NCBI GenBank assembly: GCA_964580365.1
Contig: CAZOLL010000002.1
Location: 1-44,006, forward strand
DNA length: 44,006 nucleotides
Source: an uncultured Phycisphaeraceae bacterium
Lineage (GTDB): Bacteria; Planctomycetota; B15-G4; JADJEK01
Direction: 5' to 3'
Shown here: positions 7,426-25,143 of the stretch, in pieces
Layout of the letters: every line of letters begins with the position of its first letter
Numbering within the stretch: the stretch's first letter is position 1
Notes under the pieces: model-generated
Told to the model about the DNA's origin: nothing
Databases searched by the model: none
What the model saw: only the letters and a program-made list of their open reading frames with translations
Translations under genes and position numbers: made by a program

Positions 7426-8337
7426 GTGAAGCGCAAGATCGACCTGTTCGGAGTCCCGATGGACCTGGGCGCCGCGCGCCGAGGCGTCGACATGGGGCCG
7501 TCCGCACTGCGGATCGCCGGCGTCGTCGAGAAGATCCGCGCGCTCGGCCACGAGGTCGAGGACAAGGGCAACGTCGACGTCGCGGAGATGGCGACCACCG
7601 CGGTCGGCGACGGCACGGCGAAATACCGCGCCCAGATCCTCGACTGCGTCGCGCGACTCGCGGCGGCCGTGGAGAAGTCGGTCGCGGCCGGCCGCTTCCC
7701 CGTCGTGCTCGGCGGCGACCACTCGATCGCGATCGGCACGATCACGGGCATCTCCGCCGTGCACCGCCGCCAGGGCAAGAAGATCGGCCTCATCTGGTTC
7801 GACGCGCACGGAGACATGAACACGCCGGACACGAGCCCGTCCGGCAACGTGCACGGAATGCCGCTCGCGATGCTGCTCGGCTACGGGCCGAAGGAGTTCG
7901 CGGAACTCGGCGGCTTCCACCCGAAGGTCGAGCCGAGGAACGTCGTGCTGATGGGCGTGCGCTCGCTCGATCCGTGGGAGCGCGAGATCGTGAAGAAGTC
8001 CGGCATCCACGTCATCACGATGAAGGAGATCGACCGGCTCGGCATGGCGGAGGCCACCGACCGCGCGATCGAATTCGTGAGCGACGGCACCGCGGGCTTC
8101 CACCTCTCGTTCGACCTCGACGGGCTCGACCCGGACATCGCGCCGGGCGTCGGCACGCCGGAGCCGGGCGGCATCAACTTCCGCGAGGCGCACCTGTTGA
8201 TGGAGCTGGTCGCCGACAGCGACCGCCTGCTCGGCCTCGAGCTCGTCGAGCTGAACGCCGTGCTCGACGACCGAAACCGCACCGCGGAGCTGACGGCGCA
8301 CCTGATCCAGAGCGCGCTCGGCCGACGCATCCTGTGA
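7426..8337 (+). CDS. rocF: arginase
   Basis: Ureohydrolase motifs GGDHSIAIG, WFDAHGDMNTPDTSPSGNVHGMPLAMLLG and SFDLDGLDPDIAPGVGTPEPGG. The SGN.HGMP signature favours arginase over agmatinase. Confidence 0.9.
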   Translation: MKRKIDLFGVPMDLGAARRGVDMGPSALRIAGVVEKIRALGHEVEDKGNVDVAEMATTAVGDGTAKYRAQILDCVARLAAAVEKSVAAGRFPVVLGGDHSIAIGTITGISAVHRRQGKKIGLIWFDAHGDMNTPDTSPSGNVHGMPLAMLLGYGPKEFAELGGFHPKVEPRNVVLMGVRSLDPWEREIVKKSGIHVITMKEIDRLGMAEATDRAIEFVSDGTAGFHLSFDLDGLDPDIAPGVGTPEPGGINFREAHLLMELVADSDRLLGLELVELNAVLDDRNRTAELTAHLIQSALGRRIL

Positions 8338-9578
8338 CGAACGCGCCGCGTCCGGTCGAAGAACCCGTCCCCGCGGGGCCCGTCGCCACCCCCGTCGCGA
8401 CGAGGGGCTCGCTCGTCGTCGTCTTCCTCACGGTGCTGATCGACCTGCTCGGCTTCGGCATGGTCGTGCCGCTGTTGCAGGTCTACGCGCGCGAATACAA
8501 CGCGAGCGGCGTGACGATCGGCTGGCTGATGGCGATCTTCTCGCTGATGCAGTTCCTGTTCGCGCCGCTGTGGGGGCGCGTGTCGGACCGCATCGGCAGG
8601 AAGCCGGTCCTCTTGATCGGGCTGTTCGGCTCGTTCGGCTCCTACCTCTTGTTCGGGCTCGCGCACTCGCTGCCGCTCTTGTTCGCGTCGCGGATGTTCG
8701 CCGGGTTCTTCGGAGCAAACATCTCGACGGCGCAGGCCTACGTCGCCGACGTCACGACTCCTGAGAACCGTGCGAAGGGGATGGGGATGATCGGCGCGGC
8801 GTTCGGGATCGGCTTCGTCTTCGGCCCGCCGGTCGGCGGGATGCTCGCGCACTGGCACCCGTCCGCGCCGGGCTTCTTCGCGGCCGGGTTGTCGCTCGCC
8901 GCGTTCTCGTTCGGGTGGTTCCGCCTGCGCGAGTCGCACCGTCCTGGCGAGCCGTCGGCGCGACGGCGCTACTCGTTCGCGGACGTCGGCGCCGCGGTGG
9001 CGGATCCGCGGCTCGCGACCTTGCTCGTCGGATACCTGTTCGTGACGTTCGCATTCGCCGGGTTCGAGACCACGTTCATGAACCTCGGCACGATCGTGCT
9101 GCACTACGACACGCGCACGATGGGCTTCTTGCTCGGCGGCGCGGGGCTCGCGTCGGCGCTGGTGCAGGGGCGACTGATCCACTCGCTGGTGCGCAAGTAC
9201 GGCGAGCGCCGGTTGCTCGTGGCCGGCTCGCTCGCGCTCGGCGTGGGGTTCATCGGCGTCGCGTTCGCCAACGGCGCACTCGTGTTCCTCGGTTCGGCGT
9301 TCGTGGTCGGGATCGCCTACGGCTTCTGCAATCCGTCGATGGGTGCGCTGATCTCGAAGAACACGACGCAGGCCCGCCAGGGCGCGACGCTCGGCGTCGC
9401 GCAATCGTTCGCGAGCCTCGGCCGCGTGCTCGGGCCGCTCGCGGCCGGCGTCGCGTGGGATCGGTCGATTCGCGCGCCGTACCTCCTCGGCGGCGGCGTG
9501 GTCCTCGTGCTCGCGTGCGTGTTCGAGTTCTATCGCCGGCGCTTCCCGTCCGACCTCGTCACGGTCGCGCGCGGTTGA
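8334..9578 (+). CDS. MFS transporter (drug/H+ antiporter, TetA/TCR-like, 12 TM)
   Basis: GTG at 8334 overlaps the rocF stop (GTGA). MFS motif A is LWGRVSDRIGRKPVLL. Multiple TM segments. The longer track ORF from 7974 is Arg/Pro-rich read-through of the rocF region in another frame. Confidence 0.85.
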   Translation: MTNAPRPVEEPVPAGPVATPVATRGSLVVVFLTVLIDLLGFGMVVPLLQVYAREYNASGVTIGWLMAIFSLMQFLFAPLWGRVSDRIGRKPVLLIGLFGSFGSYLLFGLAHSLPLLFASRMFAGFFGANISTAQAYVADVTTPENRAKGMGMIGAAFGIGFVFGPPVGGMLAHWHPSAPGFFAAGLSLAAFSFGWFRLRESHRPGEPSARRRYSFADVGAAVADPRLATLLVGYLFVTFAFAGFETTFMNLGTIVLHYDTRTMGFLLGGAGLASALVQGRLIHSLVRKYGERRLLVAGSLALGVGFIGVAFANGALVFLGSAFVVGIAYGFCNPSMGALISKNTTQARQGATLGVAQSFASLGRVLGPLAAGVAWDRSIRAPYLLGGGVVLVLACVFEFYRRRFPSDLVTVARG

Positions 9579-9661
9579 TCGTGCTGTTCGACCCCGTCCG
9601 CGACCGATAGTCTTTTCGCGAATCGAGGGCCCGACGCGCGGGCTCGCATCGGGAGGAACCC

Positions 9662-10225
9662 ATGGTTCCGTTGCTCATCGTCCTTGGCGTCATCGTCCTG
9701 CTCTTCCTCGTCTTCATGGGGATGTACAACGGCCTCGTCCGCCTGCGCAATCAATGCCGCAACGCGTGGTCGCAGATCGACGTGCAGTTGAAGCGCCGCC
9801 ACGATCTCATCCCGAATCTCGTCGAGACGGCGAAGGGTTACATGAAGCACGAGCGCGAGCTGCTCGAGGGCATCGCGAAGGCGCGCTCGGGCGCGGTGGC
9901 CGCGTCGGCAGCGCACGACATCAAGGGTCAGATCGGCGCCGAGAACCAGCTCTCCGCGCTCCTCACGCGCTTCATGGCCGTGCAGGAGAACTACCCCGAG
10001 CTGAAGGCGAACACGAACATGATGTCGCTGCAGGAAGAGCTGTCGTCGACCGAGAACAAGATCGCGTTCGCGCGGCAGTTCTACAACGACTCCGTGATGC
10101 GCTACAACAACCAGATCGAGACCGTGCCGTCGAACATCGTGGCGGGGATGTTCTCGTTCTCGGCGATGGAGTTCTTCGAGGTCGAGAACAAGGAAGAGCG
10201 CGAGGTCGTGAAGGTCCAGTTCTGA
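9662..10225 (+). CDS. lemA: LemA family protein
   Basis: An N-terminal TM segment is followed by YNGLVRLRNQCRNAWSQIDVQLKRRHDLIPNLVETAKGY...QENYPELKAN...LSSTENKIAFARQFYNDSVMRYNNQIETVPSNIVA, which is typical of LemA. GGGAGGA lies upstream. Confidence 0.9.
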   Translation: MVPLLIVLGVIVLLFLVFMGMYNGLVRLRNQCRNAWSQIDVQLKRRHDLIPNLVETAKGYMKHERELLEGIAKARSGAVAASAAHDIKGQIGAENQLSALLTRFMAVQENYPELKANTNMMSLQEELSSTENKIAFARQFYNDSVMRYNNQIETVPSNIVAGMFSFSAMEFFEVENKEEREVVKVQF

Positions 10226-10250
10226 CCGCGCTCGCGCGCGCGGACTCGAG

Positions 10251-11180
10251 ATGGCGAACCTCTTCGACGAGATCGCCCGCAACAAGCGGCGCTCGACGAT
10301 CCTCATCTTCCTGATGTTCCTGCTGACCGCGCTGCTCGGCGGCGTGTTCGGAGCCTACTTCGAGGCGCCGGTCGGCGGGCTCGTCGTCGCCGGCGGTGCC
10401 GCGATCGTGGCGACGCTCATCGCGTGGTTCGGCGGCTCGGCGATGATCCTCACGATCTCCGGCGCGAAGCCGATCGAGAAGGCCGACCACCCGCAGTTGT
10501 GGAACGTCGTCGAGGAGCTGTGCATCGCTGCCGGTCTCGCGAAGATGCCGCGCATCTTCATCATCCAGGACTCGGCGCCGAACGCGTTCGCCACGGGGCG
10601 CAACCCGCAGAACGCGAGCGTCGCGATCACCACGGGCCTGCTCGAGAAGCTCGATCGCGACGAACTGCAGGGCGTGATGGCGCACGAGCTCTCGCACGTT
10701 CGCAACTTCGACATCCGCTACGCGATGCTCGTCGGCGTCATGGTCGGCGCGATCGCGCTGTTCTGCGACATGTTCCTCCGCTCGGTGCGTTTCGGCGGGC
10801 GACGCAGCTCGAAGAACGCGGGCGGCGCGCAGGCCGTGATCCTCGTGCTCGCGCTGGTCCTCGCGATCCTCGCGCCGATCTCCGCGCTCGCGCTGCAGAT
10901 GGCGATCTCGCGCCAGCGCGAGTACCTCGCCGACGCGTCGGGCGCCGAGCTGACGCGCCTGCCCGAAGCGCTGGCGCGCGCGTTGAAGAAGATCGCCGGG
11001 GACACCGAGGTGCTCGAAGCGGCGAATCGTGCGACGCAGCACCTCTACATCGTGAACCCGATCAAGCCGTTCGAGGCGCGTGCGTCGAGGCTGTTCGCGA
11101 CCCATCCGCCGATCGAGGAGCGCGTGAAGCGCCTCGAGGCGATGGGGTACGTGAGGTCTTCGGCGGGAGCGGCCGGGTGA
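10251..11180 (+). CDS. htpX: M48 family zinc metalloprotease, HtpX-like
   Basis: HELSHVRNFD (HEXXH), four TM segments, AFATG motif, and C-terminal LFATHPPIEERVKRL. Confidence 0.88.
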   Translation: MANLFDEIARNKRRSTILIFLMFLLTALLGGVFGAYFEAPVGGLVVAGGAAIVATLIAWFGGSAMILTISGAKPIEKADHPQLWNVVEELCIAAGLAKMPRIFIIQDSAPNAFATGRNPQNASVAITTGLLEKLDRDELQGVMAHELSHVRNFDIRYAMLVGVMVGAIALFCDMFLRSVRFGGRRSSKNAGGAQAVILVLALVLAILAPISALALQMAISRQREYLADASGAELTRLPEALARALKKIAGDTEVLEAANRATQHLYIVNPIKPFEARASRLFATHPPIEERVKRLEAMGYVRSSAGAAG

Positions 11181-15645: not shown

Positions 15646-18222
15646 ATGGCGGAGCCGAACGATCGCATCGAGGACCTGCTGATCGAGGAGGAGATGCGCG
15701 TCTCCTACCTCGATTACGCGATGTCGGTGATCATCAGCCGCGCGCTGCCGGACGTGCGCGACGGCCTGAAGCCATCGCAGCGCCGCGTGCTCGTCGCGAT
15801 GCACGACCTCAATCTGGGACCGCGCGCGAAGAAGAAGAAGTGCGCCAAGATCGCGGGCGACGCATCGGGCAACTACCACCCGCACGGTGAAGCGGTCGTC
15901 TACCCGACGCTCGTGCGCATGGCGCAGAACTTCGTGATGCGGTACCCGCTCGTCGACGGCCAGGGGAACTTCGGCTCGGTCGACGGCGACCCGCCGGCCG
16001 CGATGCGTTACACGGAAGCCTCGCTCACCGCTGCGTCGATGGACCTGATGGAGGACCTCGACAACAAGGCGACCGTCGACTTCGTGCCGAACTATGACGG
16101 CACGCGCGAAGAGCCGGTCATCCTCCCGAGCAAGTTCCCAAACCTGCTCTGCAACGGAGCGAGCGGCATCGCGGTCGGCATGGCGACGTCGATGCCGCCG
16201 CACAACCTCACGGAAGTGAGCGCGGCTCTACTCAAGCTGCTCGACTCGCCCGACGTCACCATCGACGAGCTGTGCGAGATCGTGCGCGGCCCCGACTTCC
16301 CGACCGGCGGCATGATCTGCGGTCGCGCCGGCATCCTGAACGCCTACCGCGTCGGCCGCGGTCAGATCGTCGTGCGCGGCCGCGCCGAGATCGAGGAGAC
16401 CGGCAAGGACCGCCGTCAGATCGTCCTCACCGAGATCCCCTACCAGGTCAACAAGACCGCGCTGATCGAGACGATCGCGAACCTAGTGAAGGAAGACCGC
16501 ATCCCGTCCATCTCCGACCTGCGCGACGAGTCGGACAAGGAAGGCATGCGCGTCGTCATCGAGCTGAAGAAGGGCGAAGACGCGAACGTCACGCTCAACC
16601 AGCTCTACAAGTTCACTGAGCTCCAAACGACGTTCTCGATCATCAACATCGCGCTGGTCGGCAATCGCCCGCGCACGCTCAACCTGAAGCAGCTGCTCGA
16701 GGCGTACGTCATCCACCGCCGCGACGTCATCCGGCGCCGCACGCGCTGGCAGCTGAAGAAGGCGGAAGACCGCCTGCACATCGTCGAAGGCCTGAAGATC
16801 GCGGTCGACCACATCGACGAGGTGGTCCGCATCATCCGCCAGGCCGCGGACGTCGAGTCCGCGAAGATCACGCTGATGAGCACGTTCTCGCTCAGCGAGA
16901 TCCAGGCGGTCGAGATCCTCCGCATGCAGCTGCAGCGACTGACCGGTCTCGAGCGCGACAAGCTCGAGGAGGAGCGCAAGAAGCTGATCGAGGAGATCGC
17001 TCGCCTGAAGGCGATTCTCGCCGACCCGAAGCTCGTCGACGACCTGATCCGCACCGACGTGAAAGAGCTGCGCGACCGCTACGGCGACGAGCGCAAGACC
17101 GAGATCACGGGCGAGGAACTCGAGACCTACGTCGACGAGGACCTGATCCCCGACGACACGATGGCGGTCACGGTCAGTCACCAGGGCTACGTGAAGCGCC
17201 TCCCGCTCGATTCGTACCGCCGCCAGGGGCGCGGTGGCGTCGGCGTCACCGGCGGCGACTCGAAGGACGAGGACTTCCTCGAGCACCTCTTCGTCGCGCA
17301 GAACCACGACTACATCCTGTTCTTCACCGACCGCGGCCGCGTGCACTGGCTCAAGGTGCACCAGCTCCCGCAGCTCTCGCGCTACAGCAAGGGCCGCGCG
17401 GTGCAGAATCTCCTGCAGCTCCAGCCGGGCGAGACCGTCTCGTCGATGATCCCGGTGCGCGACTTCACGCGCGGGTATCTGTTCCTCACGACGAGCACCG
17501 GCACCGTGAAGCGCACCGCGCTCTCCGCGTTCTCGCGGCCGAAGCGCGGCGGCATCATCGCGATCGGACTGCTGCCGGAGGATCGCCTCGTCGGCGTCGC
17601 GGTCGTCGGCCAGGACGACGAGGTCATGCTCGCCACGGCGAAGGGCCAGGCGATCCGCTTCCCGATCTCGAAGGTGCGGCCGATGGGGCGCACTGCGCGC
17701 GGCGTGTGGGGCATCAAGCCGCACGACGGCGACGCGGTGATCGGCTCGATCGTCGTCGACGCGACGGCGCACGTCCTCACCGTCGGCGCGAAGGGCCTCG
17801 GCAAGCGCACGCCGTTCGAGGAGTACCGCGTCACGAACCGCGGTGGCGTCGGCATCATCAACATGAAGCTCACCGACCGCACCGGCGACGTCGTCGCGGT
17901 GAAGGCGGTGCGCGACGGCGACGACCTGATGATCATGACGCAGGACAGCATGGTCGTTCGCATCGCGGTGTCCGGCATCTCGGTGATCGGCCGCAGCACG
18001 CAGGGCGTGAAGCTGATCTCCCTGCGCGAGAACGACAAAGTCGTGTCGGTCGCCCCGGTCGTGAAGGAGGACACCGAGGGCGAATCGCCGAAGGCCCTCT
18101 CGGGCGAGCCGATCGCGCCGGAATCTCCGGACGACGACGGCGGCGACTCGGGTGACAATGGCGCCCCGGACGACGCGCCCGACGGCCCCGACTCGGCGCC
18201 GGACGCCCCCGACGCGGAGTGA
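15646..18222 (+). CDS. gyrA: DNA gyrase subunit A
   Basis: [29 protein letters not shown], the [21 protein letters not shown], the active-site AAMRYTEA, C-terminal beta-pinwheel repeats, and an acidic tail. Confidence 0.97.
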
Positions 18223-19535
18223 GCGCGATGGACGACGAGAACAATCCGAGCGGTCCGTTCTGCTCGATCGAAGAGGCCCTGGACGATCTGCGTCAGGGCA
18301 GGCTGATCGTTCTCGTCGACGACGAGGACCGCGAGAACGAAGGCGACCTCTGCTGCGCGGCCGAGTTCGTCACGCCCGAGACCATCAACTTCATGTCGCG
18401 CGAGGCGCGCGGCCTGATCTGCCTCGCGCTCGACGCGAAGATCGTCGACCAGCTCGAGCTGCCGATGCAGGTCGCCGACAACTCGTCGCGCTTCGGCACC
18501 GCGTTCACGGTGTCGATCGAGGCGAAGCACGGCGTCACGACCGGCATCTCCGCCGCCGACCGTGCGCGCACGATCCGCACGGCCGTCAACGCGAATGCGA
18601 AGGCGTCTGACCTCGTGCGTCCCGGCCACGTGTTCCCGCTGCGCGCGAAAGAAGGCGGCGTCCTGGTGCGCGCCGGCCAGACCGAAGGCATCGTCGACCT
18701 CGCCCGTCTCGCGGGGCTGCGTCCCGCCGGCGTGATCTGCGAGATCATGAACGACGACGGCACGATGGCGCGCGTCGGCGACCTCGAGAAGTTCTGTGCC
18801 AAGCACTCGATCCGCATGTGCTCGGTCGCCGACCTCATCGCGTGGCGCCGCCGCAACGAGAAGCTCGTCGAGCGCACCGTGACCGTCGACCTGCCGACGC
18901 GCTTCGGCCCGAAGTTCGACCTCCACGTCTACCGCTCGAAGGTCGACGGCATGGCGCACCTCGCGCTGTGCCTCGGTATTCCGCGCCCGGTCGACGACTC
19001 CGGCGCTCCGCCGTTGAAGGACCCCGTCCTCGTCCGCGTCCACTCCGAGTGCTTGACGGGCGACCTGCTCGGCTCACTCCTCTGCGACTGCGGCGCGCAG
19101 CTCCACATGGCGCTCGATGCCATCGCGAACGCCGGGCAGGGCATCCTGCTGTACATGCGGCAGGAAGGGCGCGGCATCGGCCTCGAGAACAAGCTGAAGG
19201 CCTACCACCTGCAGCAGACGAAGGGGCTCGACACCGTCGAAGCGAACCAGGCGCTCGGCTTCCCCGCCGATATCCGCGACTACGGCCACGGCGCGCAGAT
19301 CCTCCGCGACCTCGGCGTGCGGCGGATCCACCTGCTGACGAACAACCCCCGCAAGTACCACGCGCTCAAGGGTTACGGCCTCACGATCGACGGCCGCGTC
19401 CCGATCCAGGCCTCTCCGAACCCAAGCAACGCGAAGTACTTGTGGACGAAGGCCGCGAAGCTCGGGCACCTGCTCGACCCGCAGCCGGCACCGACGGATC
19501 GTCCTGCGGCGCCTCCTGCGTCCGACCCGGGGTGA
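18219..19535 (+). CDS. ribBA: bifunctional 3,4-dihydroxy-2-butanone-4-phosphate synthase / GTP cyclohydrolase II
   Basis: DHBP synthase motifs [11 protein letters not shown] and [13 protein letters not shown] motifs [19 protein letters not shown] and [16 protein letters not shown] at 18219 overlaps the gyrA stop; ATG at 18228 is an alternative start. Confidence 0.95.
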
Positions 19536-19603
19536 CCCCAATTCTTCGGAGGGCCGGGAAGAAAGGCGGGGCCGCGGCCGTTCACGTGCCCCGCTCGACG
19601 CAT

Positions 19604-19629
19604 GGAAACGGCCGGCCCGGCCGCGCGTC
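19604..19629 (+). promoter_or_regulatory. candidate ECF-type promoter (GGAAAC-N16-CGTC) upstream of the second ECF sigma gene
   Basis: ggaaac at 19604-19609, a 16-nt spacer, then cgtc at 19626-19629, about 85 nt upstream of ATG 19714. It matches the generic GGAAC-N16/17-CGT architecture of autoregulated ECF promoters. This is a motif match only. Confidence 0.25.
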
Positions 19630-19713
19630 GCGCGAGGTCCTCCAATGCACGGCTCGCATGCGATCGACGTCGCCGTCTCCGCCGGCCCCGCGCCGGCGTG
19701 GTCCTGCGGCGTG

Positions 19714-20271
19714 ATGGACGAGCTCGACGATCGCGCCCTCGTCGATCGGGCGAAGGCCGGCTCGGAGGACGCGTACACCGCTCTCGTGCGCCGCTACCAC
19801 GAGCGCGTCTTCAAGGTCGCCGCACGCATCGTGCGCACCGCGGAGGACGCCGAGGACGTGACGCAGGAAGTCTTCGCGCGCGCGCTGTCTGCGCTCGATC
19901 GCTTCGACTTCCGCGCGACGTTCTACACGTGGCTCGTGTCGATCGCGCGCAACGCCGCGTTCGACGCCTACCGCAGCGGTCGCCGCACGCGGACGACCTA
20001 CAACCTCGAGGGCGGGTTCGAATCGTTCCCGCACGACGGCTCGGCCGACCCGGTCCGCACCAACGCGGAGAAGGAACGCGCCGAGCGGGTTCAACGCGCG
20101 TTGTCGCGGCTGTCGCCGCGCGACCGCACGCTCCTCGTGCTGCGCGAGTACGAGGACATGCAGTACGAAGAGATCGCAGTGGTCCTGGGCTGTCCGGTCG
20201 GCACCGTCGAGTCCGGCATCCATCGCGCGCGCAAGAAGCTGAAAGTCCTGCTCGGAGACGTCGAACCATGA
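19714..20271 (+). CDS. ECF (group 4) RNA polymerase sigma factor
   Basis: Region 2 is DVTQEVFARALSALDRFDFRATFYTWLVSIARNAAFD. Region 4 is LSPRDRTLLVLREYEDMQYEEIAVVLGCPVGTVESGIHRARKKL. I prefer the ATG at 19714 (MDELDD) over the upstream 19645. Confidence 0.88.
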   Translation: MDELDDRALVDRAKAGSEDAYTALVRRYHERVFKVAARIVRTAEDAEDVTQEVFARALSALDRFDFRATFYTWLVSIARNAAFDAYRSGRRTRTTYNLEGGFESFPHDGSADPVRTNAEKERAERVQRALSRLSPRDRTLLVLREYEDMQYEEIAVVLGCPVGTVESGIHRARKKLKVLLGDVEP

Positions 20272-20744
20272 ACCGCGACAACATCGAACGCATGATCGAC
20301 CTGCACCTCGACCGACGTCTCGGCATGGACGACGAACGCCGACTCGCCGAGACCCTTGCGCGTGACGCGGGCGCGCGTGCGATCCTCGCCGAGCGCGAGA
20401 ACCTGCGCGCGATGCTCCGCTCGGTGCCGGAGCCGCGCGTCCCCGCGAAGCTGCTCGACGGCGTGCTCGCGCGCGTCGCGCAGGAACGCGCGGGAGCGGG
20501 ACGGTCGGCGCGCATCCTCCCTTTCGCGCGCCGCGTGCTGCTCGCGGCCACGATCCTCTTCGCCGCGGCCTTCTTCGCCCTGGTGGCGGACTTCACCCTG
20601 AACCGCCCGGCGAAGGTGAACGCGGGCGATCCGATTGGCCAGCCGACGATCGGCGACCGTCTGCCGGGTGACGCCGCCGGCGAGCACTTCGGCGACGCCG
20701 TGAAGGACTACCTCGAGTGGCGCTTCCTGGGTCGCAACCGGTGA
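20268..20744 (+). CDS. putative anti-sigma factor (single-pass membrane protein)
   Basis: ATGA overlap with the sigma gene. An N-terminal helical domain is followed by one TM segment (VLLAATILFAAAFFALVADF). Assignment is by position. Confidence 0.5.
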   Translation: MNRDNIERMIDLHLDRRLGMDDERRLAETLARDAGARAILAERENLRAMLRSVPEPRVPAKLLDGVLARVAQERAGAGRSARILPFARRVLLAATILFAAAFFALVADFTLNRPAKVNAGDPIGQPTIGDRLPGDAAGEHFGDAVKDYLEWRFLGRNR

Positions 20745-21097
20745 CGAGCGTCCGGACGCTCCTCGCGATCGGAGCGGTCTTCCTGTTCGGCGCGGGCGTG
20801 CTCGCGGGGTTCGTCTTCTCGCGGCACGGCGAAGGGACCGCGAACGCCGAGACGAGCGGGAACACCTATCTCCAGCGCCTCGTGAACGACTACCATCTGC
20901 GCCCCGATCAGGTCGAGCGCATCAAGGGTCACCTCGGTCAGGAGCAGGGCAAGGTCGACGCGATCGTCGAAGGCGTCGCGGAGCAGGTGAAGCAGGCGAT
21001 CCGCGCCGCGCGCGCGGAGACGGTGGATTCGATTCGCGGCGAGCTCGACCCCGAGCAGCGCGAGCGCTTCGACCAGGACCGCAAGAGAGGCAGTTAG
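20741..21097 (+). CDS. membrane-anchored periplasmic helical protein, Spy/CpxP/heavy-metal-sensor-like
   Basis: GTGA overlap with the upstream gene. An N-terminal TM segment (LLAIGAVFLFGAGVLAGFVF) is followed by helical repeats with L.PDQ / L.PEQ motifs (YHLRPDQVERIK, ELDPEQRERF). Confidence 0.45.
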   Translation: MTSVRTLLAIGAVFLFGAGVLAGFVFSRHGEGTANAETSGNTYLQRLVNDYHLRPDQVERIKGHLGQEQGKVDAIVEGVAEQVKQAIRAARAETVDSIRGELDPEQRERFDQDRKRGS

Positions 21098-21103
21098 AAC
21101 CGC

Positions 21104-22906
21104 ATGGCCACGTACGTCGGTCTCGAGCTCGGCAGCGCCGAAGCGCGCATCCTGGAAGCCGAAGGCTCCGCCAAGAAACTCAAGGTCACCAACTTCGCTC
21201 GCGTCGAGCTCGAGCCGCCGAAGGAAGGCCCCGTCGCCGCGGTGCTCGACAAGGACGCGGGCGACCGCATCGACAAGGCGATCTCCGCCGCGAAGTTCTC
21301 GCGCGAGCCGGTCGCGATGTCGTGGGACTCGGGGCTGACGATCTTCCGCGAGATGGAGCTGCCGTTCACGGGCGACGAGCAGATCCGCAAGGTCATCAAG
21401 TACGAGGCCGAGTCGCACCTCCTCAACTGCGACATCAACGACGTCGTCGTCTGCCACTACAAGCTCGCCGAAGGCAAGGAGAAGAGCCGCCTGATGGTGA
21501 TGGCGGCGAACAAGGAGCAGCTCCTGAACCGCATCGAGGTCGTGGGGCGCGCGGGCGTCGACCCGCAGCTCGTCGACCTCGACGTCATGGCGGCGTTCAA
21601 CGCGTTGAACGCGCTCGGCTACGTCAACGAGCACAAGACCTTGATGGTGCTCGACTGCGGCCGCCGCCTCACGACGGTGCTCCTCATCGCCGACGGCCGC
21701 CTCGTGTCCGGCCGCGCGATCCGCATCGGCAGCGACCAGATCACCACGCGGCTCGCGCACGACCTCGAGACCGATCCGAAGGTCATCGCCGACCAGGCGA
21801 AGAAGCTGCTCGGCAACCCGGACGCTCAGGACGACCTCATGGTGCCGGCCGCGTCGGTCGCGCCCGTCGCACACGGCGACGCCGAGAAGTCGGAGACCGC
21901 GAAGGCGCCGGTCGAACTCGCGCGCGACCTCGCACTGCAGCGCGTGGGCGACTTCTATGGGAAGCTCACGCGCGAGATCAAGCGCACGCTCGTCTCGCAG
22001 AAGCTCGCCGCGCCGATCGAAGTCATCTACGCCACCGGCCCCGGCAGCCTCCTGCCCGGTTTCGCGGAGCACGTCGCGCAGAAGCTCGGCATCAACGCGC
22101 CGATGAAGCCGCTCGATCTGTTCGCGCGCGTCGAGCACTCGCTGACGCCGGACCAGGCGAAGGCCGTCGAAGTCGAGGCGCTCACCGCGCTCGGCCTCGC
22201 GTTCAAGATGGCCGGGTTCGACTCGACCAGCGTCGACTTCCGCCAGGAAGAGGTGCGCTACACCAAGAAGTTCGACCAGGTGAAGGAGCCGCTCATCTAC
22301 TTCTGCGCGGTCATCCTCATGTTCGTGCTGCTGTGGGACATGATCGAGGTGAAGAAGCTCTCGACCAAGCAGCCGTTCATGATCCGCGCCGACAAGTCGG
22401 ATGTCTGGCGCATCTGGGACACCGCGATGCGGACCTACACGCAGACGCTTGGCGCCGACGCGCCCGTGACTGCGCAGATGAAGGAGCCGAGCGTCACCGG
22501 GATTCGCGCCATCAACTTCCAGATGGAGAAGAAGAAGGACGAGCTAATGGGCGAGCTCGGCCGCGGCGGCCTCATCCCGGAGCTGCCGTCGGCGTTCGTC
22601 ATGTGGCAGCACGTGTTCGAAGCGGTCTCACCGAGCATGGACAAGATCGGCAAGCTCGTCCTCGAGGACATTCGCGTCGTCGTGCGAAAACAGAAGTCGC
22701 CGTACTGCGAGCTGAAGGGGTACACGAGTTCGGCGTCGGCCTACAACGACCTCATCACTGCGCTCGGCACGATCACCGCCCTCGACCAGAACAAGCAGAC
22801 CGTGAAGGTGACGGTGAAGGAAGGCAACACCAAGAACCCAGGCGATCGCTACGAGTTCTCCGGATTGCGCATCGAGTGGCCAGAGCGGAAGAACGGAGAA
22901 TACTGA
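21104..22906 (+). CDS. PilM-like actin-fold domain fused to a TM segment and a PilN-like periplasmic domain (GspL-like architecture)
   Basis: The N-terminus YVGLELGSAEARILE, DLDVMAAFNAL and MVLDCGRRLTTVLLIADGRLVSGRAIRIGSDQIT match the PilM/ASKHA phosphate and adenosine motifs. One TM segment (LIYFCAVILMFVLLW) sits near residue 395, followed by a Lys-rich domain of about 190 aa. Confidence 0.7.
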   Translation: MATYVGLELGSAEARILEAEGSAKKLKVTNFARVELEPPKEGPVAAVLDKDAGDRIDKAISAAKFSREPVAMSWDSGLTIFREMELPFTGDEQIRKVIKYEAESHLLNCDINDVVVCHYKLAEGKEKSRLMVMAANKEQLLNRIEVVGRAGVDPQLVDLDVMAAFNALNALGYVNEHKTLMVLDCGRRLTTVLLIADGRLVSGRAIRIGSDQITTRLAHDLETDPKVIADQAKKLLGNPDAQDDLMVPAASVAPVAHGDAEKSETAKAPVELARDLALQRVGDFYGKLTREIKRTLVSQKLAAPIEVIYATGPGSLLPGFAEHVAQKLGINAPMKPLDLFARVEHSLTPDQAKAVEVEALTALGLAFKMAGFDSTSVDFRQEEVRYTKKFDQVKEPLIYFCAVILMFVLLWDMIEVKKLSTKQPFMIRADKSDVWRIWDTAMRTYTQTLGADAPVTAQMKEPSVTGIRAINFQMEKKKDELMGELGRGGLIPELPSAFVMWQHVFEAVSPSMDKIGKLVLEDIRVVVRKQKSPYCELKGYTSSASAYNDLITALGTITALDQNKQTVKVTVKEGNTKNPGDRYEFSGLRIEWPERKNGEY

Positions 22907-23448
22907 TGGCCGACTTCGCGAAGGGCTTCATCTACACGAGCCTCGCGCTCGCGCTCGCGGGAGGCGGCTTCCACTTCTATCTCGCGAACCGCCTGAAGTC
23001 GGCCGATCCGGACGTCGAACAGGCGCTCAAGTTCTTGAAGGAAGTCAGTGTGAAGAAGGAGGACATCAACGCCCTCCTGCGCGAGAAGGAGAACGACGAC
23101 TACCTGAAGCGCGACAAGTCCGCGCGCCTCGACGAATTCCTCGCCGAACTCTCGAAGAACGCCGGCATGGAGCGCGGTCCGAGCAAAGAGAAGCCGCAGG
23201 ACGACATCGCGAACAGCAGCGCGGGCTGGAAGGACACCTCGAACGAGATCAGCTGGCTCGGCGACCGATCGCGCAAGCTCAAGTTCACCCGCGAGCAGAT
23301 CGCGCACTTCTGCTACTCGCTCGAGAACAAGACCAAGCTGCTCAAGGTGACGTCGATCCAGCTCACGACCGATCGCGACGCGCTCGACGACAGGTGGGAC
23401 GCGCGCTTCACGATCACCGAGCGCGCGCCGAAGACCCTCGGGCAATGA
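22906..23448 (+). CDS. bitopic membrane protein, PilO/GspM-like (architecture only)
   Basis: The ATG at 22906 shares one base with the upstream TGA (TGATG). It has an N-terminal TM segment (FIYTSLALALAGGGFHFYL), a coiled-coil-like Lys/Glu-rich stretch, and a C-terminal alpha/beta-looking domain. There is no sequence motif proof. Confidence 0.4.
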   Translation: MADFAKGFIYTSLALALAGGGFHFYLANRLKSADPDVEQALKFLKEVSVKKEDINALLREKENDDYLKRDKSARLDEFLAELSKNAGMERGPSKEKPQDDIANSSAGWKDTSNEISWLGDRSRKLKFTREQIAHFCYSLENKTKLLKVTSIQLTTDRDALDDRWDARFTITERAPKTLGQ

Positions 23449-23491
23449 TCGCGCGGCACGCCGCCGCGACCTCGCACTCCGTTCCGACCCG

Positions 23492-23935
23492 ATGAGCCGC
23501 GCGTTCGTCAAGGAGACCGACGACCGCGAGCCGCGCTGCCCGGTTTGTACCGGGCGCGGTGTGCCGGTCACGCGCGTGACGATCGCAGCGCTCGCCGGCG
23601 AACCCGCGGCCGCGCGGCTTGGCGCCGAGACGTTCTGCTGCGACGTCCCGTCGTGCGAAATCGCGTGGTTCGACGGCGTCGGCGCACGCGTCCGCGTCGA
23701 CGAACTGCGCGCGCCGCCCTGGCCGAAGGATCCGTCCGCGCCGGTCTGCGCGTGCTTCGGCGTCGGCGCCGATCAGATCGAGGCGTGGGGCGCGCGCGCC
23801 GACACCGCCGCGGTGAAGGCGCTGCTCGAGCGCGTGAAGGGGACGTCCGCGCGCTGCGCGACGAAGGCGTTCGACGGCAGCTCGTGCGAGCCGCACGTGC
23901 GGAAGATCTTCCTTCGAGCGCGCGGACTCGGCTGA
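23492..23935 (+). CDS. cysteine-rich putative metal-binding protein (N-terminal CxxC zinc-ribbon-like plus BFD/CopZ-like CxC module)
   Basis: CPVCTGRG, FCCDVPSCEIAWF, VCACFGVGADQIEAW, and ARCATKAFDGSSCEPHV. It resembles the putative Fe-S/metal chaperone family with a C.CF..t...I motif. Assignment is from memory. Confidence 0.4.
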   Translation: MSRAFVKETDDREPRCPVCTGRGVPVTRVTIAALAGEPAAARLGAETFCCDVPSCEIAWFDGVGARVRVDELRAPPWPKDPSAPVCACFGVGADQIEAWGARADTAAVKALLERVKGTSARCATKAFDGSSCEPHVRKIFLRARGLG

Positions 23936-23958
23936 GTCCGCGCTCGGTCACGCCGCGA

Positions 23959-25143
23959 TCAACCGCGGAAGGCGTCGAGCCCCGTGACCCACTTGCCGAG
24001 GATCAGCGTGTGGACCTCGTAGGTGCCTTCGTAGGTGTGCACCGACTCGAGGTTCGCCGCGTGGCGCAGCGCCTGGTACTCGTCGAGGATTCCGTTCGCG
24101 CCGAGGATCTCGCGGCAGGTGCGCGCGGTGTCGAGCGCCATCTTCACGTTGTTGCGCTTCGCCATCGAGATCTGCTCGGGCGTCACCGCGCCCGCGTCCT
24201 TCAGTTTGCCAAGGCGCCAGCACAACAGCTGCGCCATCGTGATCTCGGTGAGGATGTCCGCGAACTTGCGCTGCGTGAGCTGGAAGCCCGCGATCGGGCG
24301 GCCGAACTGCGTGCGCGACTTCGAATAGCGCACCGCCTCTTCGAGGCAGCCCTGCGCGGCGCCGATGCCGCCCCACGCGATGCCGTAGCGCGCCTGGTTC
24401 AGGCACGAGAGCGGACCGCCGAGGCCCTTCGCGTCCGGCAAGCGGTTCGACTCCGGCACTTCGACGTGATCGAGCACGAGCTCGGAGGTGACCGACGCGC
24501 GCAGCGAGAGCTTGCCCTTCATCTCCGGCGCCGAGAAACCCTTCATGCCCTTCTCGACCAGGAAGCCGCGCACGCCGTCGTCGGTCATCGCCCACACGAC
24601 CGCGACGTCGGCGAGCGTCCCGTTGGTGATCCACATCTTGTTGCCGTGGACGACCCAGGTGTCCTTGTTCTTCTTGGTCGCCTTCGTCGACATCCCGCCC
24701 GGATCGGAGCCGTGGTCCGGTTCGGTGAGGCCGAAACAACCGATCTTCTTGCCCGACGCGAGCTGGGGCAGCCACTTCTTCTTCTGCTCTTCCGAGCCGT
24801 AGCGGAAGATCGGGAACATCACGAGCGCGCCCTGCACCGACGCGAACGAGCGCACGCCCGAGTCGCCGCGCTCGAGCTCCTGCATGATCAACCCGTAGGC
24901 GACGTTGTTGAGGCCCGCGCAGCCGTACTCCTCCGGCAGGTTCGCCCCGAAGACGTTCAGCTCCGCGAGCTGCGGGATCAGGTCGTTGGGGAACGTGCCG
25001 TTCCGCGCGTGCTCCGCGATGATCGGGACGACCTTCTCGGAGGTGAAGTCGCGCACGGTGTCGCGCACCATGCGCTCCTCCTCGGAGAGGAGCTCATCGA
25101 GCTTGTAGAAGTCCACGCCGCGGTAGTCGGGGTTCGTGACCAT
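23959..25143 (-). CDS. gcdH: glutaryl-CoA dehydrogenase (acyl-CoA dehydrogenase family)
   Basis: CFGLTEPDHGSDPGGM, WITNG, and the C-terminal ILGANGILDEYQALRHAANLESVHTYEGTYEVHTLILG are typical of GCDH. Confidence 0.88.
   Translation of the reverse strand: MVTNPDYRGVDFYKLDELLSEEERMVRDTVRDFTSEKVVPIIAEHARNGTFPNDLIPQLAELNVFGANLPEEYGCAGLNNVAYGLIMQELERGDSGVRSFASVQGALVMFPIFRYGSEEQKKKWLPQLASGKKIGCFGLTEPDHGSDPGGMSTKATKKNKDTWVVHGNKMWITNGTLADVAVVWAMTDDGVRGFLVEKGMKGFSAPEMKGKLSLRASVTSELVLDHVEVPESNRLPDAKGLGGPLSCLNQARYGIAWGGIGAAQGCLEEAVRYSKSRTQFGRPIAGFQLTQRKFADILTEITMAQLLCWRLGKLKDAGAVTPEQISMAKRNNVKMALDTARTCREILGANGILDEYQALRHAANLESVHTYEGTYEVHTLILGKWVTGLDAFRG

Follow-up and report, generated by a model that had tools for sequence, protein, structure and literature searches.

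The 44-kb window (the whole stretch of DNA analysed, 44,006 nucleotides) holds, at 19714-23448, a predicted operon of five same-strand genes that is vertically inherited across Planctomycetota. The first three genes are predicted to encode an ECF sigma factor, an anti-sigma factor and a Spy/CpxP-like periplasmic protein, and the last two a 600-aa PilM-type fusion and a 180-aa PilO/GspM-like partner. These assignments, proposed in an initial annotation of the sequence, are all borne out, at differing strengths. The operon could supply a platform under sigma control that serves a machine encoded elsewhere, or else an envelope signalling device complete in itself. No description of the cassette turned up in searches of the literature.

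Operon structure, promoter and regulatory genes

The genes had been described as chained by stop-start overlaps with one 6-nt gap, and each joint holds when re-read in the sequence. All features lie on the + strand. The sigma and anti-sigma genes share ATGA at 20268-20271, the anti-sigma and Spy-like genes GTGA at 20741-20744, and the 600-aa and 180-aa genes TGATG at 22904-22908; the stop codon of the Spy-like gene (TAG, 21095-21097) is followed by 6 nt and then the ATG of the 600-aa gene at 21104. The coding signature of the genome is present in 5/5 frames, with GC3 of 0.89-0.94. The start of the sigma gene, ATG at 19714 (GTGATGGACGAG), is conserved with the closest relative. A longer sigma frame from 19645 was rejected, as it falls in non-conserved sequence. 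No internal promoter of the sigma-70 type was found in 19400-24100, and terminator-like matches in the operon are weak stems of five or six pairs, at about the level of shuffled sequence. The last two genes had been singled out as unusually Lys-rich, and their K/(K+R) is indeed 0.59 and 0.61, compared with 0.12-0.25 in the first three and with a whole-genome median of 0.28 (95th percentile 0.58). Because GC3 is normal, this richness is a trait of the proteins and not a mark of foreign DNA.

A conserved ECF-type promoter is located at 19556-19585, with a -35 element GGGAAG (19556-19561), a 17-nt spacer and a -10 element CGTTCAC (19579-19585). The block containing GGGAAG-N17-CGTTCAC is near-identical in the closest relative, and the sequence 3' of it diverges. 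The motif GG(G)AA(G/T)-N16-17-CGTC(C/G/T)A(A/C) is found just 5' of the sigma gene in loci from the same order and recurs in 10/18 distant Planctomycetota loci. A promoter previously proposed at 19604-19629 has to be abandoned in favour of this one; not even the closest relative shows conservation over that stretch. The promoter at 19556-19585 probably drives the whole operon and is probably autoregulated by the cassette sigma. No regulon of this sigma could be predicted.

The first gene (19714-20271, 185 aa) is firmly predicted from sequence profiles to encode an ECF sigma factor of group 4, matching Pfam Sigma70_r2 (68.6 bits) and Sigma70_r4_2 (69.5 bits) and NCBIfam TIGR02937 (120 bits, cut-off 42.9). 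Orthologues, 36-85% identical, precede the cassettes examined. Together they group apart from the 22 other ECF sigmas of the genome, and 0/500 label shuffles were as clustered. The second gene (20268-20744, 158 aa) can be read as a single-pass anti-sigma on the strength of its position, topology and weak profile matches (NF052375, E 2.2e-6, below its cut-off), and of a zf-HC2 motif in distant orthologues. It has a cytoplasmic anti-sigma domain, a transmembrane segment at residues 90-108 by hydropathy and a periplasmic tail of ~50 aa. Pfam zf-HC2 is matched by the distant orthologues, which also have an H-x3-C-x2-C motif that is lost in the present family; the protein appears to derive from a zinc-binding type whose zinc ligands were lost in this lineage.

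The third gene (20741-21097, 118 aa) encodes a membrane-anchored helical protein of the LTXXQ type, with an N-terminal transmembrane segment (residues 7-25, hydropathy) and two conserved L-x-P-[DE]-Q motifs of the L-x-x-x-Q type. Its earlier designation as Spy/CpxP-like is supported by the family profile: Spy accounts for each of its top four PDB matches (E 8e-4 to 3e-3), and both motifs are aligned. Of 18 orthologues, 7 match Pfam LTXXQ, none of them above the cut-off (best E 3e-4). A comparable gene occurs in 11/14 of the distant loci that have the sigma.

The PilM fusion and its bitopic partner

The 600-aa protein is laid out like a PilM-PilN fusion or GspL. Its N-terminal cytoplasmic domain (residues 1-375, 21104-22228) is firmly assigned to the PilM-type actin fold. 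Pfam PilM_2 matches it at 69 bits (cut-off 27), and the AlphaFold2 model (pLDDT 80.6) finds as its best Foldseek matches in the PDB the PilM structures 5eou, 3jc8_Ma and 2ych (E 1e-22, TM 0.82-0.83), followed by FtsA (E 1e-17) and then EpsL (E 6e-10). The phosphate-1 (D/E-x-G), phosphate-2 (D-x-G-x-x-x-T) and adenosine (T-G-x-G) positions are kept phylum-wide. The Foldseek search suggested earlier for the product of 21104-22906 returns a PilM-type fold at TM 0.82, where the absence of any PilM/GspL-like fold would have spoken against the annotation. Of the architecture then proposed, the layout stands, and the cytoplasmic domain is nearer to PilM than to GspL by both fold and sequence. Within the family, pilM profiles match 17/17 members, the Amuc_1101 family 16/17 and GspL/T2SSL 4-7/17.

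Between this domain and the single transmembrane helix (residues 396-414, hydropathy) the alignment reveals the motif V-D-F-R-Q-E-E-x-R-Y-x-K-K-F-D-Q-V-K-E-P-L (residues 377-397; with the helix, 22232-22345). Conservation in the family peaks here, with D378, R380, Q381, E382, E383, Y386, F390, D391, Q392, P396 and L397 invariant or nearly so, and the most distant members in the phylum match this stretch only. Its position just before the helix is that of I-D-L-L-P in the canonical PilN of the same genome, and we infer that the two motifs are equivalent.

The periplasmic part (residues 415-600 and the stop codon, 22346-22906) is modelled with pLDDT 83-93 as helices followed by an alpha-beta-beta-alpha-beta-beta domain (DSSP: H497-515, E518-526, E534-541, H544-554, strands 558-577, E583-591). 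By sequence it has no match in the PDB, and hhalign against the partner family and the genome's own PilN gave nothing significant. It belongs to a small family, with 249 clusters at E<=1e-3 among 1.84 billion representatives. The modelled secondary structure is the sole basis of its assignment and weakly suggests a domain of the PilN/GspL type.

The 180-aa protein (22906-23448) is modelled (AlphaFold2, pLDDT 82.7) with a membrane helix and coiled coil at its N terminus (4-62) and an alpha-beta-beta-alpha-beta-beta domain after them; the N-terminal segments of its orthologues score as transmembrane. The PilO/GspM-like layout noted earlier reappears in the Foldseek matches of the model, namely PilO 3jc8_Oa (E 5.7e-4), Amuc_1100 (6lad, 6laf, 6kny), PilO 2rjz and 5uvr, and PulM 8ab1, all with probability 0.99-1.00. 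The protein has no match in Pfam or NCBIfam, and neither periplasmic domain of the pair showed a sequence-level tie to PilN, PilO, GspL or GspM. The predicted model gives moderate support to a PilO/GspM-like fold. By a start-codon and ORF rule an orthologue lies directly 3' of the fusion gene in 17/19 loci; the exceptions are L023, where the frame is truncated, and L029, a short contig left unexamined. Among the distant loci, it likewise comes after the fusion gene in those with a called downstream ORF.

Conservation, genomic context and possible roles

The cassette was present in 42/42 sampled genomes of the order, mostly in single copy, and the C-terminal profile has matches in 143/301 Planctomycetota genomes. 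Uniqueness to one genome would have weakened the earlier proposal, but among close and moderately distant relatives the gene order recurs wherever enough flanking sequence is available, even where identity falls to 29-35% and the neighbouring genes differ. Of 18 distant loci, 14 have a same-strand sigma gene 1-1.5 kb upstream, and 10 have ribBA upstream of the cassette. That an ordinary ECF envelope-stress unit merely happens to lie beside a degenerate, functionless remnant of a pilus cluster is barely credible. The periplasmic domains have diverged past sequence recognition, as such a remnant might, but the frames are intact and under strong purifying conservation, many positions are invariant phylum-wide, the gene occurs throughout the sampled order, the genes are joined by stop-start overlaps and the AlphaFold models are confident.

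The window had been described as devoid of secretin, pilin or pseudopilin, ATPase and platform genes, and scans for profiles and prepilin motifs agree. In whole-genome profile scans, T2SSE, T2SSF and Secretin gave no match on the contig that makes up the window, where PilM_2 matches the 600-aa gene alone, and a six-frame scan found no prepilin motif in the window and 9 elsewhere in the genome. Searches by tblastn with the genome's own GspE, GspF, secretin and pilin found none within ~9 kb in 18 distant loci, and the Pfam-annotated gene lists of the relatives' loci contain no machine genes. The genome survey that had been called for did reveal complete pilus/secretion clusters elsewhere in the genome; these carry their own PilM, and at least one has PilN and a PilO-like gene. 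GspE/PilB-type ATPase genes number at least 5 in the genome, against only 3 for canonical PilM. The usual setting of such fusions is illustrated by a Firmicute-type genome, in which the gene for a 562-aa PilM fusion and, after it, a 230-aa gene sit within a complete PilB-PilC-pilin-PilD cluster.

Starting from the gene identities, folds, conservation and promoter, we tentatively favour the reading that the cassette encodes an inner-membrane platform, raised by an envelope signal under sigma control, for a type IV filament or secretion machine encoded elsewhere. The single-pass anti-sigma would keep the sigma at the membrane until an envelope signal, read via the Spy-like protein and the short periplasmic tail of the anti-sigma, sets it free. 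The freed sigma would then raise the whole operon and with it the amount of platform. The helices and periplasmic domains of the fusion and the 180-aa protein may bring the two together, in the manner of PilN-PilO and GspL-GspM, and the PilM domain would most likely dock onto a GspE/PilB-type ATPase encoded elsewhere, for which the surplus of such ATPases over canonical PilM offers possible partners. If so, an envelope signal would govern some of the type IV filament or secretion capacity of the cell. The lack of machine genes nearby is odd for a true machine part, however, and it counts against this platform that the genome's own clusters are self-sufficient, that cassette copy number stays at one however many pilus or secretion clusters a genome has, and that the pair stands without an adjacent sigma gene in 4/18 distant loci. 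The periplasmic domains, moreover, are weakly assigned, on fold in the 180-aa protein and, in the fusion, on secondary structure only.

The initial annotation had weighed the same two options, a part of a dispersed machine and a repurposed signalling module. As a self-contained envelope signalling device, the pair would serve no pilus or secretion machine and would act as a transmembrane sensing or transducing arm, or a scaffold, of the ECF pathway, working with the anti-sigma and Spy-like protein and made in fixed proportion to them. We consider this rather unlikely. It would account for the sigma gene being linked to the pair far more consistently than machine genes, for which no link was ever seen, and it is consistent with the translational coupling of the five genes, the mostly single-copy presence in every sampled genome of the order, the canonical clusters owning their PilM/N/O, the small, lineage-restricted C-terminal family and the Lys-rich composition common to the last two proteins. 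Yet the nucleotide-binding positions are kept as in true PilM, the loci lacking an adjacent sigma gene weigh against this reading too, and a plain regulon member would equally be expected in a sigma operon. Literature searches found no PilM/GspL-type protein acting in sigma signalling, and we know of no such precedent.

Comparison with known systems

One of the closest counterparts of the pair is the PilM-PilN-PilO alignment subcomplex in the type IVa pili of Thermus, Pseudomonas and Myxococcus (PDB 2ych, 5eou, 3jc8, 2rjz). Shared features are the PilM fold (TM 0.82-0.83) with its nucleotide-binding positions, a short conserved motif just ahead of a single transmembrane helix as in PilN, and a bitopic partner with a coiled coil and an alpha-beta-beta-alpha-beta-beta domain as in PilO. 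In the window, however, PilM and the PilN-like part form one polypeptide that scores 76 bits with TIGR01175 (below its cut-off of 133), PilN and PilO are undetectable by sequence, and the pair has an ECF sigma, anti-sigma and Spy-like triad in its operon instead of pilP, pilQ, pilB, pilC or pilin genes beside it. The GspL-GspM platform in the inner membrane of type II secretion systems (EpsL/EpsM, PulL/PulM; PDB 1yf5, 8ab1) shares the overall layout, in which an actin-like domain in the cytoplasm is joined by one transmembrane helix to a ferredoxin-like domain in the periplasm and a small bitopic partner follows, and Foldseek matches extend to the cytoplasmic domain of EpsL and to PulM. The 600-aa protein nevertheless fails T2SSL (13 bits, cut-off 25.5), its cytoplasmic domain is of the full PilM/FtsA type (TM 0.57 to EpsL, 0.82 to PilM), and no gspC-K genes lie near the pair.

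Planctomycetota and the Akkermansia lineages both belong to the PVC group of phyla. The pair could be the planctomycetal counterpart of MUL2 Amuc_1101/Amuc_1100, forming the inner-membrane base of a fibre apparatus of PVC type that serves attachment or large-polymer uptake and is here controlled by an envelope-stress sigma, which we regard as improbable. Amuc_1101 (MUL2B) and Amuc_1100 resemble the pair in that a PilM-like gene adjoins a gene for a PilO-like fold (PMC13174399, PMC5332112), in the profile match to NF045709 (the Amuc_1101 family; 16/17 members, best E 1.5e-31) and in the match of the 180-aa model to Amuc_1100 crystal structures at probability 1.00. The 600-aa protein, however, scores 69 bits, far below the family cut-off of 650, and only its N-terminal half aligns (positions 73-391 of 608), so that the C-terminal halves are not shown to be related. 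Generic PilM scores equal or better, and the likeness to Amuc_1100 is no better than that to PilO or PulM. In Akkermansia the cluster Amuc_1098-1102, which has been linked to attachment and the use of mucin, also contains a secretin and a pilin-like gene, and the two papers cited mention no sigma or anti-sigma gene in it (PMC13174399, PMC5332112); the cassette has no adjoining pilin-like gene or secretin.

Two further comparisons concern the regulatory genes. ECF-controlled type II secretion is known from VreI/VreR (PUMA3) with the Hxc system of Pseudomonas aeruginosa, which resembles the operon, by linkage alone, in having an ECF sigma/anti-sigma pair genetically tied to genes of a type IV filament machine. 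There the whole machine is clustered or co-regulated, whereas in the window the tie to the sigma extends to an L/M-type pair only. CnrH-CnrY-CnrX, and the Cpx system's CpxP with the chaperone Spy, are envelope-stress units with a periplasmic LTXXQ-type modulator. The likeness lies in the sigma, the single-pass anti-sigma and the small helical periplasmic protein with paired LTXXQ-like motifs; compared with Spy, this protein is membrane-anchored, shorter and below the Pfam LTXXQ cut-off. In contrast to these units, the operon in the window runs on into pilus-platform-like genes.

Operon layout and distribution

The window, 44,006 bp, is the whole of contig C2; its genome is metagenome-assembled, 5.0 Mb in size and 70% G+C, with relatives labelled Phycisphaeraceae or Phycisphaerales. 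Five frames on the same, forward strand (19714–23448; GC3 0.89–0.94, typical for the coding sequence of this genome) encode an ECF sigma factor, an anti-sigma factor, a Spy/CpxP-like small protein, a 600-aa fusion with a PilM domain (21104–22906) and a 180-aa PilO/GspM-like partner (22906–23448). The junctions read in the initial annotation were recovered exactly, with ATGA at 20268, GTGA at 20741, 6 nt between the third stop codon and ATG 21104, and TGATG at 22904–22908, and all five genes are translationally coupled. Inside the cassette region, no sigma-70-like promoter was found, and terminator-like matches are few, with weak stems, at about the level of shuffled sequence. The Lys-richness previously remarked on in the last two proteins also holds (K/(K+R) 0.59 and 0.61, about the 95th percentile of the genome, with normal GC3). 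A Cys-rich 147-aa gene (23492–23935) begins 44 nt past the cassette and has 75% identity in the closest relative; because it is kept only there, other relatives having different genes at this place, it is a neighbour and not a member of the cassette.

Homologues of the fusion came only from Planctomycetota assemblies. The order of sigma, anti-sigma, small gene, fusion and 180-aa gene, the conservation of which had been left as a question, is kept in every locus with enough flanking sequence, down to 29–35% identity and despite differing flanking genes. To follow the distribution, we used a profile of the C-terminal 229 residues of the fusion, which excludes ordinary PilM. The gene was found in 42/42 genomes available for the class, all flagged as the same order (5 families, 28 genera), mostly as one copy. 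A phylum-wide sample of 301 genomes yielded it in 143, for the most part in open frames of ~490–760 aa; the latter count is a lower bound because the profile was built from one order. Among 18 loci fetched from elsewhere in Planctomycetota (hereafter distant loci), 14 have an ECF sigma gene, 36–43% identical, on the same strand 1–1.5 kb upstream of the fusion. As a rule, the anti-sigma gene and the bitopic gene downstream are there as well, and the Spy-like gene occurs in 11 of the 14 sigma-bearing loci. The gene that directly precedes the sigma gene, in the same orientation, is ribBA (DHBP synthase/GTP cyclohydrolase II; 18219–19535), an adjacency shared by the window, most loci of the order and 10/18 distant loci (the ribBA-synteny loci being the window, L051, L054, L056–L059, L062, L063, L065, L068 and L070). 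The presence of ribBA in front of the sigma gene across the phylum points to old vertical inheritance of the cassette.

Two loci of a low-G+C planctomycete lineage have a different arrangement. L052 and L064, from single-contig genomes of 9.3–9.5 Mb with fetched loci of 35–40% G+C, encode the fusion and a 185–188-aa partner followed by a 440–457-aa polytopic membrane protein. No sigma gene was found there within 9 kb, so the pair of fusion and partner can exist unlinked from the sigma triad.

The sigma factor unit and its promoter

The first gene is firmly assigned, by its profile matches, to the ECF sigma factors (sigma-70 group 4): it comprises regions 2 and 4 only (Sigma70_r2 68.6 bits, Sigma70_r4_2 69.5 bits) and scores 120 bits with TIGR02937 against a cut-off of 42.9. 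The anti-sigma gene overlaps its stop codon, such that a cognate pair adjoins, and encodes a protein of single-pass anti-sigma topology with one transmembrane segment (residues 90–108) and a periplasmic tail of ~50 aa; its match to the anti-sigma family NF052375 reaches 27.8 bits (cut-off 100). In distant orthologues, zf-HC2 is matched and H-x3-C-x2-C, the motif of zinc-binding (ZAS) class I anti-sigma factors, is present; its His and Cys ligands are gone from the anti-sigma of the window and its family (anti-sigma alignment A7). At 20268–20744, a zinc-binding anti-sigma domain has apparently turned zinc-free inside a single orthologous group.

The third protein, probably helical, has an N-terminal anchor and two conserved L-x-P-[DE]-Q motifs. 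It scores 16.3 bits with LTXXQ (PF07813; gathering cut-off 24.3), a family matched by 7 of 18 orthologues at E<0.1, likewise below the cut-off. Searched against the PDB, its family profile gives Spy for each of the four best matches (E 8e-4 to 3e-3), and both motifs align. By these comparisons, it is probably Spy/CpxP-like and not a proven member of the Spy/CpxP/LTXXQ family.

The cassette sigma factors form groups of their own, separate from the genome's 22 other ECF sigmas, none of 500 label shuffles being as clustered. They fall into two well-separated groups on a tree with an unresolved backbone, and a single origin is therefore neither shown nor excluded. The closest paralogue (38% identity) is on the minus strand of another contig of the genome (C122:6020–6671), at the head of a different unit, of sigma, anti-sigma and a 403-aa putative lipoprotein; its upstream motif, GGGAAC-N18-CGTCCAA, resembles that of the cassette, and promoter cross-talk between the two sigma factors is conceivable.

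The predicted cassette promoter is GGGAAG-N17-CGTTCAC at 19556–19585. The corresponding motif, GG(G)AA(G/T)-N16-17-CGTC(C/G/T)A(A/C), is found directly 5´ of the sigma gene in most loci examined in the order and in 10/18 distant loci, which suggests an autoregulatory promoter of ECF type, with a GGAAC-like -35 and a CGT-like -10 element, conserved across the phylum. In the closest relative (80–85% protein identity), 19537–19593 is nearly identical, whereas the next ~120 nt (19594–19710), up to the sigma start, do not align. Alignment resumes at GTGATGGACGAG, and because conservation returns there, ATG 19714 is supported as the start of the sigma gene. The promoter originally proposed, GGAAAC-N16-CGTC at 19604–19629, lies inside this unaligned stretch and is ruled out as the conserved promoter, given the near-identity of 19537–19593; it could be a second promoter particular to this lineage, or no more than variable leader. 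A weight matrix from 23 cassette promoters was also run over the 5-Mb genome. The control of reversed and complemented sequence scored as high (22.8 against 21.4), and the true cassette site tied 9th of 842; the scan thus had no power against its control, and no regulon is predicted.

The PilM fusion, its partner and the lack of adjacent machine genes

The N-terminal part of the 600-aa protein matches PilM_2 (PF11104) with 69 bits (cut-off 27) and TIGR01175 with 76 bits, under the stricter cut-off of 133. In its AlphaFold2 model (pLDDT 80.6, 21 homologues in the alignment), this domain shows a PilM fold, actin-like with a 1C subdomain of FtsA type, in agreement with the actin-fold assignment made earlier from sequence: PilM came top in a Foldseek search of the PDB (5eou, 3jc8, 2ych; E ~1e-22, TM 0.82–0.83), ahead of FtsA (E 1e-17) and the EpsL cytoplasmic domain (E 6e-10, TM 0.57). 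The phosphate-1, phosphate-2 and adenosine positions of the actin fold are kept across the phylum. Conservation in the family is highest in V-D-F-R-Q-E-E-x-R-Y-x-K-K-F-D-Q-V-K-E-P-L, a stretch that follows the PilM domain and runs into the single transmembrane segment (396–414). It occupies the position of M-I-K-I-D-L-L-P in the canonical PilN of the same genome, and we infer that it is a tethered PilN-like peptide.

The periplasmic part is modelled as helices followed by an alpha-beta-beta-alpha-beta-beta domain (pLDDT 83–93). Foldseek with the full-length model is dominated by the PilM domain. No Pfam match to PilN (PF05137) was obtained for the fusion, the comparison of its periplasmic part with the genome's own PilN by hhalign was not significant, and a profile search of the PDB with the C-terminal part gave no significant match. 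T2SSL scores 13.2 bits (cut-off 25.5) and GspL profiles are matched by 4–7 of 17 relatives; on these scores, the fusion would not be placed in the GspL family (PF05134 + PF12693/TIGR01709). The family of the C-terminal module is small: at E≤1e-3, it comprises 249 clusters in a set of 1.84 billion protein representatives. A wider search, with an alignment spanning the phylum, added essentially nothing to the homologues already found except one Firmicute-type protein.

The AlphaFold2 model of the 180-aa partner (pLDDT 82.7) begins with a helix of 60 residues and shares its domain type with the periplasmic part of the fusion. As the initial annotation had supposed from its layout, the modelled fold is PilO-like: Foldseek returned PilO (3jc8_Oa, E 5.7e-4; 2rjz, 5uvr), Amuc_1100 (6lad, 6laf, 6kny) and PulM (8ab1), with probabilities of 0.99–1.00, yet E-values of only 6e-4 to 4e-2. 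Searches of Pfam and NCBIfam, including PilO/GspM (PF04350/PF04612), gave no match, and the family profile gave no significant match in the PDB. In hhalign comparisons, the PilO-like gene beside the canonical PilN was not significant (E 0.003, probability 11%), and no significant link was found between the C-terminal family of the fusion and the family of the partner. At the level of sequence, neither periplasmic part could be linked to PilN, PilO, GspL or GspM.

A further reading equates the pair with Amuc_1101/Amuc_1100 of Akkermansia, which belong to a cluster linked to attachment and the use of mucin (PMC13174399, PMC5332112). Real profile and fold matches exist but are no better than those to generic PilM and PilO, and the fusion misses the cut-off of the Amuc_1101 family by far (NF045709, 69 bits against 650, with only positions 73–391 of 608 aligned); we regard this correspondence as improbable.

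Profile scans bore out the absence of machine genes from the window, in which no pilN-O-P-Q, PilB/PilC or gsp operon genes were found, and tblastn with queries from the same genome detected GspE, GspF, secretin or pilin within ~9 kb of the fusion in none of the 18 distant loci. Pilus and secretion clusters do exist on other contigs of the genome, which has 8 matches to T2SSE-family ATPases, at least 5 of them of GspE/PilB size, 3–4 GspF/PilC genes, 3 canonical PilM genes and ~10 secretins. Pilins, a 354-aa PilM, secretin, GspE and GspF make up a full cluster on contig C20. On C283, a secretin and a PilO-like gene accompany PilM and a PilN with the IDLLP motif. C41, C30, C21 and C430 encode ATPases, accompanied or not by platform genes, and their assembled parts lack PilM. 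Since canonical PilM is encoded on other contigs, the cassette fusion is an extra, separately kept paralogue and not the only PilM of the cell. Contig C21 also has two 291-aa ORFs ~1.8 kb apart (7765–8640 and 9588–10463), with identical first 60 residues, lengths and GC and each with the same antisense ORF; either a tandem duplication of recent date or a repeat produced by assembly accounts for them.

Possible roles and relation to known systems

Beyond the demonstrated gene identities, modelled PilM and PilO-like folds, tight gene coupling, phylum-wide linkage and conserved ECF promoter, we propose a scheme for how the cassette might work. The fusion and its partner would pair as an inner-membrane platform, like PilN-PilO or GspL-GspM. 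An envelope signal, received via the Spy-like protein and the tail of the anti-sigma, would release the sigma factor, which would then raise expression of its own operon, and the platform would dock on an ATPase belonging to a type IV filament machine whose genes lie elsewhere in the genome. The complete chain, from platform pairing through sigma release to docking on a remote ATPase, is offered tentatively, as something that falls a little short of an even chance. If the platform serves a remote machine, an envelope signal would control how much capacity for pili, secretion or polymer uptake Planctomycetota have. In Rhodopirellula baltica, salt stress was reported to induce pilB, pilT and pilC along with the ‘pilM’ gene RB2860 (PMC2754498), which may or may not be the orthologue of the cassette fusion.

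Alternatively, the pair has left pilus and secretion machines and serves the sigma pathway itself as its arm for sensing or scaffolding, its cytoplasmic actin-fold ATP-binding domain coupling to an envelope-stress sigma factor. That machine genes are never adjacent, that the cassette stays single-copy and that all five genes are translationally coupled would fit such a role. Against it, no precedent is known, and in four distant lineages, including one of low G+C, the pair occurs without an adjacent sigma gene. We consider it rather unlikely, and equally doubtful in its fuller form, in which the pair, the anti-sigma and the Spy-like protein make up a transmembrane signalling or scaffold device across Planctomycetota. 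It would imply the recruitment of an actin-fold pilus protein into sigma-factor signalling, which we have not met in the literature, and an ECF pathway wired in a novel manner; as every genome of the order has one copy, the device might then be a core envelope function of the phylum. The cell biology of Planctomycetota, with no FtsZ, an unusual envelope and polymer uptake, is poorly understood. With its small size, single copy and defined promoter motif, the cassette makes the choice between a platform for a remote machine and a signalling arm testable in tractable planctomycetes, e.g., Planctopirus limnophila.

Each part of the cassette is of a known kind: sigma and anti-sigma form an ECF unit, the periplasmic protein resembles the LTXXQ type, and the PilM fold comes with a partner similar to PilO/GspM; scores above family cut-offs are reached only by the sigma factor and the PilM domain. 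Our literature search returned no description of a stand-alone sigma and orphan platform cassette, which may have had brief mention in planctomycete papers. The usual context of PilM fusions is a cluster as in a Firmicute-type locus (L069; GCA_965348165.1, 5753–17030), where a 562-aa PilM fusion and then a 230-aa gene lie in a complete PilB-PilC-pilin-PilD-pilins cluster, in surroundings with CodY and flagellar genes. The cassette contrasts with this setting. To our knowledge, PilMNO and GspLM platforms occur only inside complete pilus or secretion machines, and the known role of ECF sigma units is mainly that of a stress switch; in the cassette, a platform pair and an ECF unit are joined in one conserved, phylum-wide operon, apart from every other machine gene.
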